A DNA stretch of 64,000 nt, taken from assembly GCA_900766925.1 (NCBI GenBank), contig CAAFXG010000316.1, positions 3,735 through 67,734 of the forward strand, in the 5' to 3' direction. The notes under the pieces are model-generated. The model saw only the letters and a list, made by a program, of their open reading frames with translations, was not told the origin of the DNA and searched no databases. Shown in pieces: positions 24,598 through 48,837 of the stretch; the stretch's first letter is position 1; every line of letters begins with the position of its first letter. This stretch comes from Lachnospiraceae bacterium. Lineage in GTDB: Bacteria; Bacillota; Clostridia; Lachnospirales; Lachnospiraceae. The translations under genes and the position numbers were made by a program.

Positions 24598-24732
24598 TAT
24601 GTCATAAAAGTTAATTTATATAAGAAAGTATATGATTATGTAACCCTAAATCATATATTTCCTTGTTAAATTAACTTTTTTTGGTAAAATATTTCCATAA
24701 TGTTTATAAAATAAACCAGGGGGACTGAAATT

Positions 24733-26456: not shown

Positions 26457-26648
26457 ATATAAAAAAAGCGTGATTCTGTCGGCACCGGCTGTATATATAG
26501 CTAATAAAAAGACCGTTTGGCAACGTCAGCACTTAACGAGCGTGTTTTTAGACGAGTTTAGTACTGTTACGTTGACAACCGAGCGGGAGTAAGTCTTATT
26601 ATTAGCTATATATACAGCCGGTACCGACAGAATCACGTTTTTTTATAT
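26457..26648. repeat. Giant hairpin element copy 1: about 53-bp stem with A-tract/T-tract flanks and a 79-nt apical core
   Basis: I paired it base by base. Positions 26461-26513 pair with 26593-26644 with only an A.A (26508/26598) and a C.A (26483/26623) mismatch. The core 26514-26592 is homologous (as reverse complement) to the core of copy 2. Confidence 0.8.
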
Positions 26649-26715
26649 TCATACATTGTTTTTTGGTATATTTTGTGATATTTTATAGAAGAGTATGTTT
26701 ATTTGGAGGTTTGTA

Positions 26716-28020
26716 ATGAGAGAATATTCTACACAAATGGAAGCGGCAAGAAAAGGAATTATTACACCCGAATTAAAAAAGGTTGCAGATAAAGAAAAAA
26801 TGTCTGTAGATGAATTATTGCCATTAGTTGCAAGTGGTAAAGTTGTTATTTGTGCTAACAAAAATCATAAATGTCTTGAACCACAGGGTGTGGGCTCAAT
26901 GCTTACAACCAAAATTAATGTAAATCTTGGTGTTTCGAAGGATTGCAAGGATTATGATATAGAAATGAAAAAGGTTATGGAAGCAGTCGATATGGGTGCA
27001 CATGCAATAATGGATTTGTCATCACATGGTAATACTATTCCGTTTAGAAGAAAACTCACCTCGGAATGTCCTGTTATGATAGGAACCGTGCCTGTATATG
27101 ATTCTGTTATACACTATCAGAGGGATCTTGCAACCCTCACTGCAAAGGATTTTATAGATGTTGTGCGTCTTCACGCCGAAGATGGTGTTGATTTTGTTAC
27201 ACTTCACTGCGGAATTACCCGTAAGACTATAGAACAAATTAAAAATCACAAGCGTAAGATGAATATAGTATCAAGAGGCGGTTCTCTCGTCTTTGCATGG
27301 ATGACGATGACCGGTAACGAAAATCCATTTTATGAATATTATGACGAGATATTAGATATATGCAGAGAATATGATGTTACAATTTCACTTGGAGATGCGT
27401 GCCGCCCGGGTTGTCTTGCTGACGCATCGGATGTATGCCAGATTGAAGAGCTGGTTCGGCTTGGAGAGCTTACCAAACGTGCATGGGAAAAGGATGTACA
27501 GGTTATGGTTGAAGGTCCCGGACATATGCCTATGGATCAGATTGCAGCCAATATGAAGCTTCAACAGACAATTTGTATGGGAGCACCATTTTATGTACTC
27601 GGACCGCTTGTAACAGATATTGCACCGGGATATGACCATATTACATCAGCTATCGGAGGTGCAATTGCTGCAGCTTCAGGTGCAGCGTTTCTGTGCTATG
27701 TTACACCTGCTGAGCATTTGGCACTTCCTAATGTTGAAGATGTAAAGCAGGGTATAATCGCATCTAAGATTGCAGCCCACGCGGCTGACATTGCCAAGGG
27801 AATAAGAGGTGCAAGAGATATAGACGACAGGATGGCTGACGCAAGACGGGCTCTTGACTGGGAAACACAGTGGGAGTGTGCCATAGATCCTGATACTGCC
27901 AGGGCAATCCGTGATGACAGAAGTCCTGAGCATGATGATACATGCTCAATGTGCGGTAAATTCTGTGCCGTAAGGAGTATGAATAAGGCGTTAGCAGGTG
28001 AATACATAGATATTTTATAA
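26716..28020 (+). CDS. thiC: Phosphomethylpyrimidine synthase ThiC
   Basis: The sequence is colinear with ThiC, for example [12 protein letters not shown] and the C-terminal Fe-S motif [11 protein letters not shown] prefer ATG 26716 (RBS GGAGG) over 26695. Confidence 0.9.
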
Positions 28021-34737: not shown

Positions 34738-36696
34738 ATGTACGACTACTATAGAACCGCGGTAGCGGTACCTGATATAAAGGTCTGCGATGTTCAATAT
34801 AATACACAGGAAATTATCAGCAAAATTAACGAGGCAAATAAGGAATCAGTTAAACTGATTACATTTCCGGAGCTTTCTCTTACCGGATACACCTGTGCCG
34901 ACTTATTTCTGCAGGAGCTTGTAATAACAGAGGTCCATAAGGGACTGAGCCAAATTCTTAACGCTTCCTGTGGTCTTGATATGATTATAGTGGTTGGCGC
35001 ACCTGTAAGGCTTTCATACCAGCTTTTTAATTCAGCAATTGTAATTTACAATGGACAGATACAGGGAATTAATGTAAAGACATTTATCCCTAATTATAAT
35101 GAATTTTACGAAAAAAGATGGTTTTCCTCAGCTTCAGAGCTTGATGCAGAAGAGGTATCATCCAGAGAAATACTTGGAAATGAATGCACTGATAATTATT
35201 ACATTCCAATTGGTAATGATATAATTTATCGGGTAAATGACGAGCTTACCTTCGGTATTGAAATATGTGAGGATGTATGGTCACCTTTACCGCCATCTAC
35301 CTGGATGGCAATGTCAGGAGCAGAAGTTATTCTGAATCTGTCAGCCAGCAATGACACAATAGGCAAACGTGATTACAGAAGACAGCTTATCAAAAGTCGT
35401 TCGACAGCTCTAATGTGTGAATATATTTATGTATCATCAGGAAGCTCAGAAAGTAGCACAGACCTGATTTTTTCCGGTCACAGCCTCATAGCTGAAAATG
35501 GAAGAGTTTTGATTGAAAACGAAAAAATAGTTGACAATAATTATATTATGGTATCGGATATGGATTTGGGAAAAATTCGTGCGGACCGTTTGAAGGGAAA
35601 AACCTTCAAGGATACCTACAGATTGTATGGAAAAGAGCATAGTATTCGTCAGATAGAATTTAATATGGAGTGTAATTTGACGTCTGACGGTTCAAAATAT
35701 AGAATCAATCCACGACCTTTTATTCCGTCATCCAAAAGCAAACGACTTGAACGTTGCAGGGATATATTTGACATGCAGGTCGGTGGACTTGCAAAACGTA
35801 TTTCAATAACAGGCGGAAAGATGGTAATTGGTGTATCGGGCGGAATGGATTCAACCCTGGCACTTCTGGTAGGTGCCCAGACACTTAAGAAGCTTGGAAG
35901 GCCAATGACAGACCTTGTTGGTATTACCATGCCGGCCTTTGGAACAACTGACAGAACCTACAATAATTCACTGACATTAATGAAAACCCTCGGAATAAGT
36001 ACTGAAACAATTCCAATAAAGGATGCATGTATACAGCACTATAGGGATATTGGACATGATATCGAGGTTAAAGATATTACCTTTGAAAATGTTCAGGCAA
36101 GGGAGAGAACACAGGTATTAATGGATTATGCCAACAAAATCGGAGCGATTGTGGTAGGTACCGGCGATTTATCCGAGCTTGCTCTTGGCTGGTGCACATA
36201 TAATGCAGATCAGATGAGTATGTATGGTGTAAATGCAAGTATTCCAAAAACTCTTGTAAAATGGCTTATTGACAGTGTTGTCCAATACAACCTGTTTCCG
36301 GACAGCAGTGAGGTATTAAAGGATATTATTGAAACTCCTATTAGCCCCGAGCTTCTGCCACCTGATGAAAATGGCAATATATCACAGAAAACTGAGGATT
36401 CTGTCGGACCATATGAATTACATGATTTCTTTTTATACTATGTAATGCGTTACGGCTTTTCACCATCAAAAATATATTATATGGCTACCCGGGCATTTGA
36501 TGGTGATTATGATTCCTGCACAATCCTTAAATGGATGAAAACATTTTACAGGAGATTTTTTAGTCAGCAGTTTAAAAGAAGCTGTATGCCGGATGGTGTA
36601 AAGGTAGGTAGTGTATGTCTCTCACCAAGAGGCGACTGGAGAATGCCTTCCGATGCCTCAGTTAATATATGGATGAAGGAGCTTGACAATTTATAA
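34738..36696 (+). CDS. nadE: Glutamine-dependent NAD+ synthetase
   Basis: 652 aa. N-terminal CN-hydrolase domain (FPELSLTGY, EICEDVW) plus a synthetase domain with the PP-loop GVSGGMDST. Confidence 0.9.
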   Translation: MYDYYRTAVAVPDIKVCDVQYNTQEIISKINEANKESVKLITFPELSLTGYTCADLFLQELVITEVHKGLSQILNASCGLDMIIVVGAPVRLSYQLFNSAIVIYNGQIQGINVKTFIPNYNEFYEKRWFSSASELDAEEVSSREILGNECTDNYYIPIGNDIIYRVNDELTFGIEICEDVWSPLPPSTWMAMSGAEVILNLSASNDTIGKRDYRRQLIKSRSTALMCEYIYVSSGSSESSTDLIFSGHSLIAENGRVLIENEKIVDNNYIMVSDMDLGKIRADRLKGKTFKDTYRLYGKEHSIRQIEFNMECNLTSDGSKYRINPRPFIPSSKSKRLERCRDIFDMQVGGLAKRISITGGKMVIGVSGGMDSTLALLVGAQTLKKLGRPMTDLVGITMPAFGTTDRTYNNSLTLMKTLGISTETIPIKDACIQHYRDIGHDIEVKDITFENVQARERTQVLMDYANKIGAIVVGTGDLSELALGWCTYNADQMSMYGVNASIPKTLVKWLIDSVVQYNLFPDSSEVLKDIIETPISPELLPPDENGNISQKTEDSVGPYELHDFFLYYVMRYGFSPSKIYYMATRAFDGDYDSCTILKWMKTFYRRFFSQQFKRSCMPDGVKVGSVCLSPRGDWRMPSDASVNIWMKELDNL

Positions 36697-38210
36697 TGAA
36701 ATTAAACGATCTGTTGAAATATAATGATATAACCATTCAATGCCATGACAATCCTGATGCAGATGCAATTGCATCAGGCTATGGTTTATATTGCTTTTTT
36801 CATGCCATGGGCAAGAATGTAAAGCTTATTTACAGCGGAAATAATATTATTCAGAAGGCAAATCTTACCCTTATGATTGAAAAGCTTAACATACCGATTG
36901 GCTATTTCTCACCAACAGAGGTATCTGAGCATAAAATTAAGGGGCTGCTGATAACGGTAGATTGTCAGTATGGTGCGGGTAACGTGACTAAAATAGAAGC
37001 TGACACAATAGCAATAATTGACCATCATCAGATAGAGATAAATAATATTGACTTAAGCCTAATCATGCCCGGTATCGGAAGCTGTTCAACAATTATATGG
37101 AATATGCTGACGGAAGAAAACTTCAATATCTCAGATGATTTAGGTACAGCCTTATATTACGGATTACTGACAGATACTAATCAGTTTACGGAAATGCATA
37201 CTCCATTGGACAGAGATGCTCAGGACGGAATCTCATTTAATAATTCTTTTATTTCACTATTTTGTAATTCCAATATTTCACTTCGTGAGCTTGAAATAGC
37301 CGGAATTGCAATGCTTCGCTACAGCTTTAATGAAGATTATAATTTTGCAGTTATTAAAGCACAGCCCTGTGACCCCAATATTCTCGGATTAATCAGTGAC
37401 TTTTTATTACAGGTACATGAAATATTCACCTGCGTTGTATATAACGAGGTACCCGGTGGTTTTAAACTATCGGTGAGAAGCTGTGTGAGAGAAGTAAATG
37501 CAGGTGAGCTTGCTTCATTCCTTACCCAGGATTTGGGTTCAGGCGGAGGTCACTACCAGAAGGCCGGAGGATTTATAAGTAAGAAGCTTTTTGATGAAAA
37601 ATATACAAGTCTGCATTCAGAAGCGTATTTTAATAACAGAATGGTAGAATATTTCAATAATTATGATTTGGTTTATGCCAATGAATATGAGGCAGATATC
37701 GAATCTATGAAATGCTACAGAAAGAAGAATATCCCTGTTGGTTACGTTAATGCCTATGAGGTTCTTCCGGTCGGTACCCCTATAACAATTCGTACACTTG
37801 AGGGTGACATTGATATGCAGATAGAAGAAGACCTCATCATAATGATAGGTATTAAGGGAGAAGTATATCCAAACAGAATTGAAAAATTCAAGCGTTCCTA
37901 CAAGCCGCTTCCTGATAAATACATTTATAATAAATATGTAATTAACAACGATTATGAGCCTGTAATTAAGGACAGAAATACCGGTGAGATAAAGCCCCTT
38001 ATTGATTATGCAAAGGTTTGTGTTACAACCGGAGAAGTACAAATATACGCAAAGCCGATAGAAAAGGATGTAAAGGTATTTACAAGCTGGGATCAGGAAA
38101 AATATATGAAGGGCAGGATAGGGGATTATCTTGCTGTTCGAACTGATGATTTACATGATGTATATATAGTTGAGCAGAACATTTTCCAAAGAACATATGA
38201 ACAATTATAG
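36696..38210 (+). CDS. DHH/DHHA1 family phosphoesterase with a roughly 170-aa C-terminal extension of unknown family
   Basis: Motifs are HDNPDADAIAS, ITVDCQ, IIDHHQ, GLLTDTNQF and the DHHA1 motif GSGGGHYQKAGG. The ATG overlaps the nadE stop (TAATG). Confidence 0.8.
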   Translation: MKLNDLLKYNDITIQCHDNPDADAIASGYGLYCFFHAMGKNVKLIYSGNNIIQKANLTLMIEKLNIPIGYFSPTEVSEHKIKGLLITVDCQYGAGNVTKIEADTIAIIDHHQIEINNIDLSLIMPGIGSCSTIIWNMLTEENFNISDDLGTALYYGLLTDTNQFTEMHTPLDRDAQDGISFNNSFISLFCNSNISLRELEIAGIAMLRYSFNEDYNFAVIKAQPCDPNILGLISDFLLQVHEIFTCVVYNEVPGGFKLSVRSCVREVNAGELASFLTQDLGSGGGHYQKAGGFISKKLFDEKYTSLHSEAYFNNRMVEYFNNYDLVYANEYEADIESMKCYRKKNIPVGYVNAYEVLPVGTPITIRTLEGDIDMQIEEDLIIMIGIKGEVYPNRIEKFKRSYKPLPDKYIYNKYVINNDYEPVIKDRNTGEIKPLIDYAKVCVTTGEVQIYAKPIEKDVKVFTSWDQEKYMKGRIGDYLAVRTDDLHDVYIVEQNIFQRTYEQL

Positions 38211-38218
38211 GGGGAAAC

Positions 38219-40702
38219 ATGGATAATAAATATTTATATGATGCATTTATAAGCTACAGACACACAGAAATAGATAAGTTTGTAGCTGAAACCTTACATA
38301 AGGAATTAGAATCATTTAAATTACCCAAAAAGCTTCGTAAAACAGGTGGTAGAGCAAGAACAAAAATAAACAGAGTATTTCGTGATAAGGATGAGCTTCC
38401 TTTAACCAGCAATCTTGAAGATCCAATTATTAATGCATTAGAGCAATCGGAATTTCTTATTGTAATCTGCTCGCCAAGACTTCCGGAATCAATCTGGTGC
38501 CAAAAAGAGATTGAAACATTTATAAGCATGCATGGAAGGCACAAGGTTCTAGCCGTTCTTATAGAAGGCGAACCTGACGAGTCCTTCCCTGATGCACTTT
38601 TATTTGATAATGTAACTGTACAGAATGAAGACGGTTCAACAAGTATCATCAAAAAACCTGTTGAACCACTTGCAGCAGACTTCAGGGGCTCAACCAAAAA
38701 GCAGATTAAAAAAGCTATGAAATCGGAAATATTAAGACTGCTTGCTCCAATGTTCGATCTGTCGTATGATGATTTAAAGCGACGCCACAGAGAAAGGAAA
38801 ATACGTAAAATAATAGGTGTATCTGTAGCCGTATCCATTGCAAGTATATTGTTTGCCGGCTACAGCGCAATTATGGCTCATAAAATTCAAAAACAGAATA
38901 TAAAAATTGAACAACAGTCACAGGAGATAGAAGCTCAAAATGAAAATCTGAAAATACAGGCTGAGGAAATTGAGGCACAGAATCAAAATCTTAAGCTTGA
39001 GCAGGCAAGAAGCTTAGCAAAGAACGCCGAAAATCTCCTTGCCAGGGACGACAGATATGGTGCTGTTAAACTGGCTTACGAAGCTGTAACGGATTATGAA
39101 GGTATGGAAATGCCTCTTACCCCGGAGGGCAGACTTGCACTGACCGAGTGCCTTGGTCTTTATGATGGTTGTTCAAATGTAAGTGCTGTTAAGCAGCTTG
39201 AAACACCCGGCATTATAGATTCAATAAAGGTGTCACCTGAAAAAGATTTATTACTTACCCTGGACAGTATCGGAAACCTTATACTATGGAATGTATCAGA
39301 CAGTAATAAGCTTATCAGTATAACAGAGCCAAATGGAATTCTGTCATACGATTTTATAAATGAAGATTCATTTTTCTATTTAAATAACGAAAATAAACTA
39401 ATAAAGGTTAATATAGCAGACAAAAACGAAACATTATATACAAGCTCAGATTCAATATTTGGAGATATTTATAATGCAATTTCAACTCCTGATGGTAAAA
39501 AAATAATTGTCCGTGAGATGTATTCATATGTGGTTCTGGATGCAAAAAATCTTACGGAAATATCAAGGTATGACGTACCATATGATATAGTCAATACTAA
39601 AATTATGTGTTCAGATGATTCCTCTGAGGCATACATTTTTGCACAAAATGAGGATGACGGATTATCTGTAATCTCCTTTAATATCTCTGACGGAAGTCAG
39701 ATTATTCAAAGCGATGCACCTGCCGGTATAATTTCCGATGTATGTAACAATTCAACCGGTATTTATGTACTCAGCTTTGATTTTGCAAGCTATAATTCTT
39801 TAAAGTCCGTAGTAACAGCCTATGACAGGACAACAGGTGAAATTAAATGGACAAGAGAAGAGGACGCAGTAGTAGCAAATAAGATGTATTATTCTAACAA
39901 GGACGGTAATGGTTTCATACTTGTGGTATCAGACCACGAGAGCCGGTTAATTGATGCAGGAACTGGCGAACAGATTAAATATTATATTACGGATACCGAA
40001 GCTGTTACCTGTAAGCTGAGCCAAAACGGTGATTTTATATTATATACTTCCGATGGTGTATGTCATTATATAAATACTACAAAGGATAAAATGGATGTAG
40101 GTCTTCAAACCATAGTATGTAACAATATTTCATTATTGGATATCACAACCTCCGGATGTGTTGGTGTACCGGAAAATGATAATCGTGTAATTATCTACAC
40201 ATATCGAAGAAACCTCGACTCAGCAGTATTTGATGGCGAACTCGCAGAAGCTTTAACAACAAATGAAACTGATGATTCCATACTTAATGAATGGGGCAAA
40301 GAAAACGGAATTGAAAGAGCTGCATTTATAAGTACATACTTAAATATTCCTGATGCAAACCTTGTTTTAGTTGCTTTCGTTGATGAATCCATTGAATTCT
40401 ACAGAGCTGATACAATGGAGTTTCTGACACATTACGATGATTTTAATGCAATGATGTGTGATTACTATGGTGAAGTAGATGGCTTATACTATATAACAAC
40501 CGTTACGGAAGGAATAGCTGTAGATAAAGACGGAAATATAATAAGCAGAATTGATGAAATGTGTGGTCTCTCTAAAGATTTGAAGCAGGTGGTTGTCTAT
40601 GGCCGTGATGAAAACGCCAAGCAGTGCCGGATTTCAATTCCTATCTACTCATTTGAAGAAATAATAAATCGTACCAAAGAATTCCTTGGTACAGAGGAAT
40701 AA
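38219..40702 (+). CDS. TIR-domain transmembrane protein with coiled coil and beta-propeller-like C-terminal region
   Basis: aa 5-135 read YDAFISYRHTE...VFRDKDELPL...FLIVICSP...SIWCQKEIE (TIR_2-like). KRRHRERKIRK is followed by a TM helix IIGVSVAVSIASILFAGYSAIMA (aa 198-220). A QNxNLK coiled coil follows, then about 550 aa with WD40-like strands (for example GNLILWNV). Confidence 0.8.
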   Translation: MDNKYLYDAFISYRHTEIDKFVAETLHKELESFKLPKKLRKTGGRARTKINRVFRDKDELPLTSNLEDPIINALEQSEFLIVICSPRLPESIWCQKEIETFISMHGRHKVLAVLIEGEPDESFPDALLFDNVTVQNEDGSTSIIKKPVEPLAADFRGSTKKQIKKAMKSEILRLLAPMFDLSYDDLKRRHRERKIRKIIGVSVAVSIASILFAGYSAIMAHKIQKQNIKIEQQSQEIEAQNENLKIQAEEIEAQNQNLKLEQARSLAKNAENLLARDDRYGAVKLAYEAVTDYEGMEMPLTPEGRLALTECLGLYDGCSNVSAVKQLETPGIIDSIKVSPEKDLLLTLDSIGNLILWNVSDSNKLISITEPNGILSYDFINEDSFFYLNNENKLIKVNIADKNETLYTSSDSIFGDIYNAISTPDGKKIIVREMYSYVVLDAKNLTEISRYDVPYDIVNTKIMCSDDSSEAYIFAQNEDDGLSVISFNISDGSQIIQSDAPAGIISDVCNNSTGIYVLSFDFASYNSLKSVVTAYDRTTGEIKWTREEDAVVANKMYYSNKDGNGFILVVSDHESRLIDAGTGEQIKYYITDTEAVTCKLSQNGDFILYTSDGVCHYINTTKDKMDVGLQTIVCNNISLLDITTSGCVGVPENDNRVIIYTYRRNLDSAVFDGELAEALTTNETDDSILNEWGKENGIERAAFISTYLNIPDANLVLVAFVDESIEFYRADTMEFLTHYDDFNAMMCDYYGEVDGLYYITTVTEGIAVDKDGNIISRIDEMCGLSKDLKQVVVYGRDENAKQCRISIPIYSFEEIINRTKEFLGTEE

Positions 40703-40735: not shown

Positions 40736-40939
40736 ATAAAAAACTGCCTGTGGCATAGGTTTTCCGCCCGGCAGTATATATGTATATGAACTAAGACACG
40801 CTCTCGCTCGGTTGTTCACGTAACGGTACTAAACTCGCGTAAAATGCACGCTCGTTAAGTGCCGACGTTCTCAAACGGTCTTAGTTCATATACATATATA
40901 CTGCCGGGCAGAAAACCTATGCCACAGGCAGTTTTTTAT
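40736..40939. repeat. Giant hairpin element copy 2: 62-bp stem with A-tract/T-tract flanks and an 80-nt apical core
   Basis: Positions 40736-40797 pair with 40878-40939 with a single C.A mismatch (40765/40910). The core 40798-40877 matches the reverse complement of the copy 1 core at about 65 of 80 hand-aligned positions. Confidence 0.8.
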
Positions 40940-47871: not shown

Positions 47872-48837
47872 ATGCAGGCAAGTGATTCAAAGAAAAAATT
47901 AATAATACTCACAGGTCCCACCGCAGTAGGCAAAACAGAGCTTTCCATCATGCTTGCAAAGGCCTGCCATGGGGAAATTATTTCGGCAGATTCTATTCAG
48001 GTTTATAAGCATTTTGACATTGGCTCAGCCAAGGTAACCAGGGAAGAAATGCAGGGTGTTCCACATCATCTGATAGATATATTGAATCCTGAAGACAATT
48101 TCAGTGTTGCTGACTTTAAAGAAATGACACTTGAGGCAATGGATAAGATTTATGCAAATGGTAATATACCTGTTATTACCGGTGGAACAGGCTTTTATAT
48201 ACAGGCTGTTCTAAATGATATAGATTTTACTAAGGTCGAAGACGATGGCTACAGAACATCACTTGAAGAGCTATATAAACAAAGAGGAGCGACTTACCTC
48301 TATCGCATGTTGGCAGAAATTGATCCTGAGTCGCTGGATGTCATACACGAAAACAACGTAAAACGTGTAATACGAGCTCTTGAATATTACCACCAGACAG
48401 GTGAGAAAATATCAACACATAACGAACGTGAAAAGAAAAAGGCTACTTCATATAATTCCGCCTATTTCGTTCTAAACTGTAACAGAGCTCTTTTGTATGA
48501 GAGAATAGAAAAAAGAGTTGATATTATGCTTGAGCAGGGACTTGTTGATGAGGTTAAACATCTTGTTGATACATACAAGCTTACAAGAAAGAACACCTCT
48601 TTGCAGGGAATCGGTTACAAGGAAATATTAGAATACCTTGATGGAAATATTACGCTTGATGAGGCAATATATATTCTTAAACGTGATACCAGACATTTTG
48701 CCAAAAGACAGCTCACTTGGTTTAAACGTGAGAAGGATGTAATCTGGGTAGATAAGGATAAATTGACAACAAAAGAAAAACAGCTCGAATTTATGCTGTC
48801 AGAGCTTAGCAGGAGGAATATTATAAATGAACGGTAA
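47872..48837 (+). CDS. miaA: tRNA dimethylallyltransferase MiaA
   Basis: P-loop GPTAVGKT, plus DSIQVYKHFDIGSAK and GGTGFY. Confidence 0.9.
   Translation: MQASDSKKKLIILTGPTAVGKTELSIMLAKACHGEIISADSIQVYKHFDIGSAKVTREEMQGVPHHLIDILNPEDNFSVADFKEMTLEAMDKIYANGNIPVITGGTGFYIQAVLNDIDFTKVEDDGYRTSLEELYKQRGATYLYRMLAEIDPESLDVIHENNVKRVIRALEYYHQTGEKISTHNEREKKKATSYNSAYFVLNCNRALLYERIEKRVDIMLEQGLVDEVKHLVDTYKLTRKNTSLQGIGYKEILEYLDGNITLDEAIYILKRDTRHFAKRQLTWFKREKDVIWVDKDKLTTKEKQLEFMLSELSRRNIINER

Follow-up and report, generated by a model that had tools for sequence, protein, structure and literature searches.

Introduction

Hairpin repeats of the REP, BOX, ERIC, Correia and SPRITE types shape transcription termination and mRNA stability. 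To our knowledge, the mobilising machinery of most small hairpin repeats is still unknown. In Correia elements, the 26-bp terminal inverted repeats are conserved, the centre varies and there is a TA duplication. The Correia (NEMIS) elements of Neisseria and the ERIC elements of enterobacteria are palindromic intergenic repeats of 100–160 bp that are co-transcribed with their neighbours; the long hairpins of Correia and ERIC are cleaved by RNase III, and their mobilising enzyme is unknown (PMC10969869). The pneumococcal SPRITE is an AT-rich, non-coding Firmicute repeat of less than 200 bp, in which an 18-bp duplex is followed by a U-rich tract. It is enriched near the 3' ends of genes and between convergent genes, and no cognate IS or target-site duplication has been identified for it (2011; PMC3049150). 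REP and REPIN sequences are extragenic hairpin repeats at gene 3' ends, recognised by an HUH Y1 transposase in their folded, single-stranded form (PMC2817692, PMC3333891), and IS1397 and ISKpn1 are IS3-family elements with a transposase gene that insert into the hairpin loops of palindromic units (PMC1525189).

Here, we analyze a hairpin located between a gene for a methyl-accepting chemotaxis protein (MCP) and thiC in a 64,000-nt stretch of Lachnospiraceae DNA (the window). Judged from its sequence, the element is a copy of a previously undescribed family of hairpin repeats of ~200 bp, mostly between about 190 and 215 bp, in uncultured gut Lachnospiraceae, an abundant lineage. Compared by description only, the family resembles SPRITE in its oversized duplex, its ends of the AAAA/TTTT type, its preference for gene 3' ends and for the space between convergent genes, and the lack of an IS or a duplication. 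It differs in having arms of 50–62 bp instead of an 18-bp duplex, an 80-nt core that forms a covarying three-way junction, and another host clade. Like Correia and ERIC, it is a palindromic intergenic repeat that forms a long hairpin; unlike Correia, its centre is conserved, its termini vary and no duplication was seen. In REPINs the arms (REP) are conserved and the loop is variable, whereas this family shows the opposite.

The element also recalls a rho-independent terminator, with a stem followed by T7, an A7 tract before it, a position 3' of a gene and the slot that a 10-bp terminator occupies in a relative. By contrast, such terminators have a stem of 5–20 bp and a loop of 3–8 nt, and the element has about 95 paired positions and a branched apex. 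It is small, non-coding, dispersed and polymorphic for insertion at orthologous sites, as are classical MITEs, but its terminal inverted repeats are not conserved between copies and it lacks a target-site duplication. Integron attC sites carry R/L boxes at the base and a variable apex, and occur in cassette arrays with an integrase, whereas here the base is variable, the apex is conserved, the copies are solitary and no integrase is nearby. Three traits distinguish the family from SPRITE, Correia and REPIN: the apex is a conserved three-way junction that covaries, the arms evolve fast while staying self-complementary, and cores appear to be exchanged. In practice, such elements break metagenome assemblies, escape standard terminator predictors and can pass for RNA genes.

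The hairpin between the MCP gene and thiC

The first-pass annotation described a near-perfect hairpin with a stem of about 53 bp around a 79-nt core. A repeat search recovered the core with identical coordinates (26514–26592), flanked by 52-nt arms (26462–26513 and 26593–26644) that are 94% complementary. Two mismatches had been given as the only ones in the stem, A.A at 26508/26598 and C.A at 26483/26623. Both are present at these positions, but there is a third non-Watson–Crick position, G26468 opposite T26638, where the stem meets the A7 and T7 tracts. The 192-nt element folds as RNA into a single long hairpin of −100.6 kcal/mol, against −40.9 ± 4.1 kcal/mol for shuffled sequences (z = −14.7; 0 of 200 shuffles equally good). 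With DNA parameters, the fold has an energy of −63.5 kcal/mol (z = −14.9). The features of this hairpin (copy 1) are as follows.

26457–26648, + strand: whole hairpin, including the ATAT-A7 and T7-ATAT flanks; the sense strand of the core is +
26461–26467, no strand: A7 tract at the foot of the hairpin on its 5' side (sequence)
26469–26475, no strand: outermost stem CGTGATT, pairing with 26631–26637; no counterpart in other copies (arm alignment)
26476–26513, no strand: left family-homologous arm, CTGTCGG..CCGGCTG-TATATATA-..AAGAC (arm alignment)
26512–26519, + strand: invariant ACCGTTTG; its CG and TTG form pairs with CAA and CG in CAACCG (26576–26581)
26514–26592, + strand: conserved 79-nt apical core, three-way junction (alignment, consensus fold)
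26522–26573, + strand: long apical helix AACGTCAGCACTTAAC / GTTTAGTACTGTTACGTT (fold, covariation)
26538–26539 with 26554–26555, + strand: tandem G.A/A.G 2x2 loop in the long apical helix (fold)
26540–26553, + strand: variable apical hairpin (fold)
26576–26585, + strand: CAACCGAGCG, nearly invariant (alignment)
26583–26590, + strand: mini-hairpin GC-GGGA-GT, with the family form GC-GNRA-GC
26593–26630, no strand: right family-homologous arm, complement of 26476–26513, holding A.A 26508/26598 and C.A 26483/26623
26631–26637, no strand: AATCACG, partner of the outermost locus-specific stem (sequence, arm alignment)
26638–26644, no strand: T7 tract at the 3' foot, in the same relative position as the terminator T-run of L016

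The stem of copy 1 ends at 26637 and T7 occupies 26638–26644, 204 nt after the MCP stop codon. The stem abuts T7 and is mirrored by A7, and the resemblance to a bidirectional terminator that had been pointed out earlier is upheld. A consensus scan found no other terminator-like site in the MCP–thiC interval, and did not call the hairpin itself (26457–26648), with its 52-nt arms and 79-nt core. We infer that copy 1 terminates transcription in both directions, as an oversized terminator, and forms a hairpin at the 3' end; it would thereby insulate the thiC promoter.

The same spacer is available for comparison in L016, a syntenic contig of the NCBI metagenome assembly GCA_037193465.1 that was reached through a ThiC homologue (P0005, 92% identity). 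Exactly where the window has the giant hairpin, it contains an ordinary 10-bp terminator, AAGGTGGAAC-12 nt-GTTCCACCTTTTT; written out with its T-run, this is AAGGTGGAAC, a 12-nt loop, GTTCCACC and T5. The T7 tract of copy 1 is co-linear with the T-run of L016, and the sequence 3' of the T-run is alignable between the window and L016 (ATTCATAC..ATTGTT..TTTTGTGATAT..GGAGGTTTG).

In an Rfam scan at the gathering threshold, no TPP riboswitch was found in the leader of ~70 nt (26649–26715) of thiC (26716–28020), nor upstream of thiC in L016 (9871–10000). A thiC gene without a TPP riboswitch is unusual in Firmicutes. On the other side of the MCP gene, 5' of it and 3' of a trxB-like gene, a 35-nt imperfect inverted repeat (24603–24683; 71% complementary, 11-nt loop) is probably an ordinary terminator.

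A second copy in the same window

The paralogous copy that had been noticed at 40736–40939 is confirmed, with 62-nt arms (40736–40797 and 40878–40939) that are 98% complementary. Its features are given below.

40736–40939, − strand: copy 2, with an 80-nt core at 40798–40877 whose sense strand is −
40738–40743 and 40932–40937, no strand: A6 and T6 flanks (sequence)

The core of copy 2 is ~85% identical to that of copy 1, on the opposite strand, and one core 15-mer is common to the two copies at a chance expectation of 0 matches. The arms, in turn, have only CCGGCWGTATATAT and AAGAC in common. A third match to the core 15-mer, with 2 mismatches, was found at 48416 within a coding sequence, and is attributed to chance.

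A further family copy lies 3' of nadE in L016; its arms measure 55 nt and its core 74 nt. In the window, the nadE stop codon overlaps the next gene, which leaves no intergenic space at this site. The flanks of copy 2 and of the L016 copy, compared as possible orthologues, did not align convincingly. Between nadE and copy 2 the window encodes a DHH/DHHA1 phosphoesterase (36696–38210) and an 827-aa TIR-domain protein (38219–40702) with a weak beta-propeller-like region, a pair that may represent inserted defence genes; in L016, nadE is followed directly by the family copy.

A dispersed family in gut Lachnospiraceae

A family-wide pattern, TACNGTTNCGTNNNCAACCGAGCG, was taken from the motif common to the three cores (copy 1, copy 2 and L016). 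It has 16 matches among the GTDB species representatives, of which 14 are real. The remaining two, in Alistipes (L028 and L029), lie inside coding sequence and were rejected as chance. The real matches come from at least 6 Lachnospiraceae MAGs of deer and other gut samples, except for one MAG labelled Bacteroides, with 2–4 matches per MAG. A covariance model built from the family (R1) recovered all real pattern matches and added diverged copies that the pattern had overlooked (L024 2056–2170, L019 6534–6652 and L049 211–327). The family thus comprises more than 15 copies of 190–250 bp at unrelated intergenic loci, with no conserved ORF. The search of related genomes for the core that the first-pass annotation had proposed therefore yielded dispersed copies. 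The annotation had also named a finding of many identical MITE copies as evidence against its reading. This is only half borne out: the copies are indeed many, but they are far from uniform, and what they conserve is the apical core and not the termini.

R1 had no match in 52 kb from other relatives, and BLAST of the cores found none among plasmids and phages. Two family-wide patterns gave one chance match and none in viral contigs, where the 14 matches of a 16-mer scan fell in coding sequence and were likewise due to chance. A pattern made from the two window copies, GTCNGCACTTAACGAGCGTG, was absent from reference genomes and had 1 chance GC-rich match in metagenomes; this block is not conserved across the family. 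No Rfam family was found at the gathering threshold for the window or for 10 related loci, and at E ≤ 10 the hairpin element had only chance snoRNA- and miRNA-like matches. Matches to mir-4536 on L033 were below the gathering score and were ascribed to the perfect AT-rich hairpin.

The apical core

Each copy forms one long hairpin with the conserved core at its apex, and the consensus fold of the core is a three-way junction. The arms run into a short helix, ACCGTTTG / CAACCG, in which one copy switches G-C to C-G (column pair 23/154: GC 16, AU 1, CG 1). The next helix, of ~20 bp (AACGYCRGYACTTARY / RYTTAGTACYGTTRCGT), contains a tandem G.A/A.G loop, symmetric in form (YGAG/CGAR), and is capped by an apical hairpin of variable sequence and length. 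A mini-hairpin on the 3' side, GC-GNRA-GC, has a loop that conforms to GNRA in every copy (GAGA, GAAA, GGGA or GCGA). The motifs ACCGTTTG and AACCGAGCG are invariant across the cores, and the position of CAACCGAGCG is occupied by GAACCGAGCG or CAATCGAGCG in two copies overlooked by the strict pattern.

In an alignment of 18 sequences, the core helices are 98–99% paired and 8 pairs are altered on both sides. When the partners were slid by 1–3 columns, pairing dropped to 30–37%. This covariation, compared with the slid controls, indicates that the core is selected as the fold of a single strand.

The core of L021 (5538–5698) is 56 nt longer than the others, and contains a partial apical domain, CACTTGGCGAGGTACTTTCGAGCCTAGTG, nested in its own apical loop.

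The arms

The arms diverge strongly between copies, while each copy is 94–100% self-complementary. Conservation is highest in the core and lowest at the outer arm ends, as seen in the alignments of the copies. Subfamily A consists of both window copies and those of L016, L021, L022, L027 and L033. Its arms are homologous over their full length (GCTGYCGC...ATATGGCAKGTATATATGGATGAT...AAAAC), with 15–40% difference and indels; those of L027 are chimeric. The subfamily A arm pairs comprise 333 Watson–Crick pairs and 9 others (4 G.T, 4 A.C and 1 A.A). Since G.T and A.C are equally frequent, the long arms show no strand bias. From this composition, the subfamily A arms look like young DNA palindromes that gather random transitions, in which case one arm would have been copied from the other.

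In subfamily B, the inner arm is imperfectly paired and conserved in sequence. It is followed on each side by 12–21 unpaired, non-conserved nt and then by a perfect, locus-specific inverted repeat of 15–23 bp. In copy 1, the outermost stem (26469–26475/26631–26637) may be a remnant of an old terminator stem or other target-derived sequence. The A/T-run ends are A7/T7 and A6/T6 in the window, A4–6/T6 in L016 and T7 in L022 and L027; T-runs are absent at many copies, for example those of L021 and L033.

Genomic context

All copies are intergenic and have housekeeping neighbours, such as enolase, iPGM, glmS, pyrG, glgP, pheS and fur. Every copy lies 3' of at least one gene; among the classifiable loci, 4 are convergent, 8 co-directional and none divergent. 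The core has no preferred orientation relative to its neighbouring genes (at the co-directional loci, sense at ~3/9, antisense at ~6/9, including copy 2). In L023 (1787–2317), a family copy is located between the terminator of a T-box leader (RF00230, 1787–2010) and the start codon of pheS, and must therefore be read through by the transcripts that get past the T-box terminator. Family members are thus not always strong terminators.

It had been noted that no gene adjacent to copy 1 encodes a transposase, reverse transcriptase or recombinase. This holds, and none was found at the ~14 loci examined either. No RAYT/TnpA gene is adjacent to these ~14 family loci and no cognate IS was found in them (8–20 kb each). 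Target-site duplications or direct flanking repeats were not found at any copy; the flanks go on as inverted repeats instead. A likeness of GGGGCTGTTG to the IS6-like end GGCACTGTTGCAAA was dismissed as a coincidence, because no 8-bp duplication accompanies it.

Presence and absence at orthologous sites

Mobility of the element is supported by its presence and absence at orthologous sites, among them the MCP–thiC and nadE sites of the window and L016 described above. A further comparison involves the iPGM–enolase spacer. Among 10 contigs from different samples with 100% identical enolase, 3 have an upstream copy (L040, L045 and L049). Six contigs with identical enolase (5 of them aligned; the empty sites include L041, L042, L044 and L048) have a spacer that is ~160 nt shorter and has no upstream copy according to R1. 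The spacer measures 426–428 nt without the upstream copy and 563–653 nt with it. The one clean pair, L041 (empty) and L040 (filled), differs by a duplicated small hairpin and 16-nt spacers, and is not a simple insertion. The filled alleles also differ from each other: the arms of L040 and L049 are ~92% identical, whereas their cores are ~65% identical and belong to different sub-lineages, indicating that the core has been exchanged. At another site, Fur/M23, L033 and L052 are filled and L051 is empty, with a short hairpin there instead.

A single spacer can hold two family copies, as seen between iPGM and enolase. The 589-nt spacer at L019 6100–6710 (the same locus as L040 2411–3001) contains two copies, of different subfamilies and in opposite orientations, and a canonical terminator. 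The upstream copy is bracketed by two small GNRA hairpins, GCATCC-GTGA-GGATGC, of which the empty alleles have one. The idea that this small hairpin beside the L040 copy is a widespread REP was abandoned, as it was found only at that locus. The secG–rnr spacer is also polymorphic among the identical-enolase strains (L042 3642–3815, also L044, L045 and L049, versus L040 4724–4779). The ~118-nt insertion is hairpin-rich and unrelated (AATTCATAGGAACCTCCTATGAATT...GCGCATAAGAATGTGCTTTGCACATTCTT), with no match to R1.

A probable mobile hairpin in a terminator slot

The first-pass annotation had offered three readings of the hairpin, namely a structured RNA, a DNA cruciform or hairpin element, and a non-autonomous mobile element that sits in terminator-like palindromes. 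The last is the best supported, given the dispersed and polymorphic family and the L016 terminator at the same site. In our judgement, the element is probably, though by no means certainly, a selfish, non-autonomous mobile hairpin repeat of the MITE/SPRITE/Correia/REPIN kind that occupies a bidirectional terminator slot. Several points count against this reading: the conserved centre and variable termini, the reverse of a classical MITE; the lack of a transposase, cognate IS or target-site duplication at the loci examined; the difference between L041 and L040, which is not a plain insertion; and the L023 copy, which must be read through.

According to this model, copy 1 would have inserted into the stem-loop of the MCP gene's intrinsic terminator, or taken its place, with the T-run being kept. 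The core is probably the recognition module of an enzyme, because it is conserved as a single-strand fold; the apical three-way junction would be recognised by a mobilising enzyme that acts in trans, is not encoded nearby, and reads the folded single strand as an ssDNA hairpin, a cruciform or RNA. The favoured mechanistic analogy is the REPIN–RAYT system, in that the enzyme might read the core in the way that REP or IS200 hairpins are read by HUH/Y1 transposases. The arms would need only to pair with each other, and their self-complementarity could be kept if one arm is copied from the other, at the birth of a copy or afterwards, through quasi-palindrome correction in replication.

The locus-specific outer stems and the nested L021 copy suggest, at the level of sequence, a preference for hairpin loops. 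IS1397 and ISKpn1 offer a precedent for loop targeting that would fit both observations, although the unit of the present family is non-coding and its loop targeting is inferred. We put forward, as a tentative and rather doubtful extension, a "mobile loop" system in which an enzyme recognises the folded, single-stranded core and moves or copies it into other hairpin loops (terminators or older copies) and the arms are regenerated or corrected. This would explain the conserved centre with variable paired arms, the outer stems, the core exchange between L040 and L049, and the nesting in L021. If true, such a terminator-parasitising loop would be distinct from the mechanisms of MITE, REPIN and IS elements. 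The ACCGTTTG...AACCGAGCG motif, the GNRA mini-hairpin and the strain-level empty and filled sites provide handles for finding the enzyme, and also allow a test of whether mobile hairpins can take over terminator slots.

Among the alternatives, a structured RNA with a host function survives best, yet we consider it unlikely. It could be a protein-bound module in 3'-UTRs, an RNase III entry site for mRNA stability, or a small RNA gene, with dispersal being secondary. The covariation of the core helices agrees with such a role, as do the RNA-typical motifs (the GNRA loop in four variants and the tandem sheared G.A/A.G loop) and the position of the copies 3' of at least one gene, where they are probably transcribed. 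The non-canonical pairs of the core, read on the sense strand, include 8 cells of G.U (~5–6 events) and 1 of A.C; this excess hints at a functional sense strand but is not significant. The structured reading of the first pass survives for the core, given its covariation, but a host RNA function is hard to square with the occurrence of copies in both orientations relative to transcription, the core being antisense at ~6/9 of the co-directional loci, including copy 2. Furthermore, a promoter is conserved at none of the copies, Rfam is empty even at E ≤ 10, and the long arms, with 4 G.T and 4 A.C, have no RNA-strand bias. The strain-level presence and absence beside identical housekeeping genes argues against an essential function in cis.

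A role of the extruded hairpin or cruciform as a host DNA element, such as a protein-binding or nucleoid site, a replication or priming site, or a recombination site, appears improbable. In its favour, DNA parameters give a fold of equal strength (z = −14.9), the arms, having no strand bias, look like palindromes of DNA, and a function of this type would not depend on orientation. Mini-hairpins of the GCGAAAGC type are, moreover, unusually stable as DNA. Against such a role, the element is patchy among close strains and species, occurs in variable contexts at irregular spacing, can share one intergenic spacer with a second copy, and has no associated gene.

We give little credit to an immobile intrinsic terminator that grew long in place, with the likeness between copies being due to duplication or convergence. 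The A-tract and T-tract flanks and the coincidence with the L016 terminator would be accounted for, but not the recurrence, in several species, of one 80-nt core and its invariant 8- to 10-mers beside >12 unrelated housekeeping loci, the polymorphism of the sites between strains, or the missing T-runs at many copies.

Very slight indeed is the chance of an inverton, in which the core, flanked by the long inverted repeats, would be able to flip and would hold a promoter reading outward to thiC. The core is indeed asymmetric, lies between long inverted repeats and occurs in either orientation, depending on the locus, and the first-pass annotation had proposed a promoter, TTGACA-N19-TATTAT, in the core of copy 1. 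This candidate was rejected: TTGACA occurs only in copy 1, its position being occupied by GTGAAC, GTGAGC, GTAGTC or GTATTC in other copies, so that the hexamers are not conserved, and a consensus scan of the copy 1 element called no promoter, the spacer between TTGACA and TATTAT being 19 nt. A single orientation was found in 10/10 assemblies of one locus and in 4 other orthologous pairs, no invertase gene is adjacent, and the covariation of the core would be left unexplained.

An assembly artefact can be virtually discounted: fold-back chimeras can yield palindromes and contigs break at the elements, but the same architecture, with its conserved asymmetric core, was recovered from many samples in independent NCBI, ENA, JGI and Logan assemblies. 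The contig breaks, which repeats are expected to cause, fall within the element in L020, L030 and L052 and ~120 nt past it in L016.

Four family copies (L021, L022, L027 and L033) are located on CAYOOW01 contigs, from the MAG labelled "uncultured Bacteroides sp." A protein with a SpoIID domain is encoded on L051, the contig with the closest relative of its Fur protein. The label seems to be mistaken, and the genome probably belongs to Lachnospiraceae or other Clostridia.
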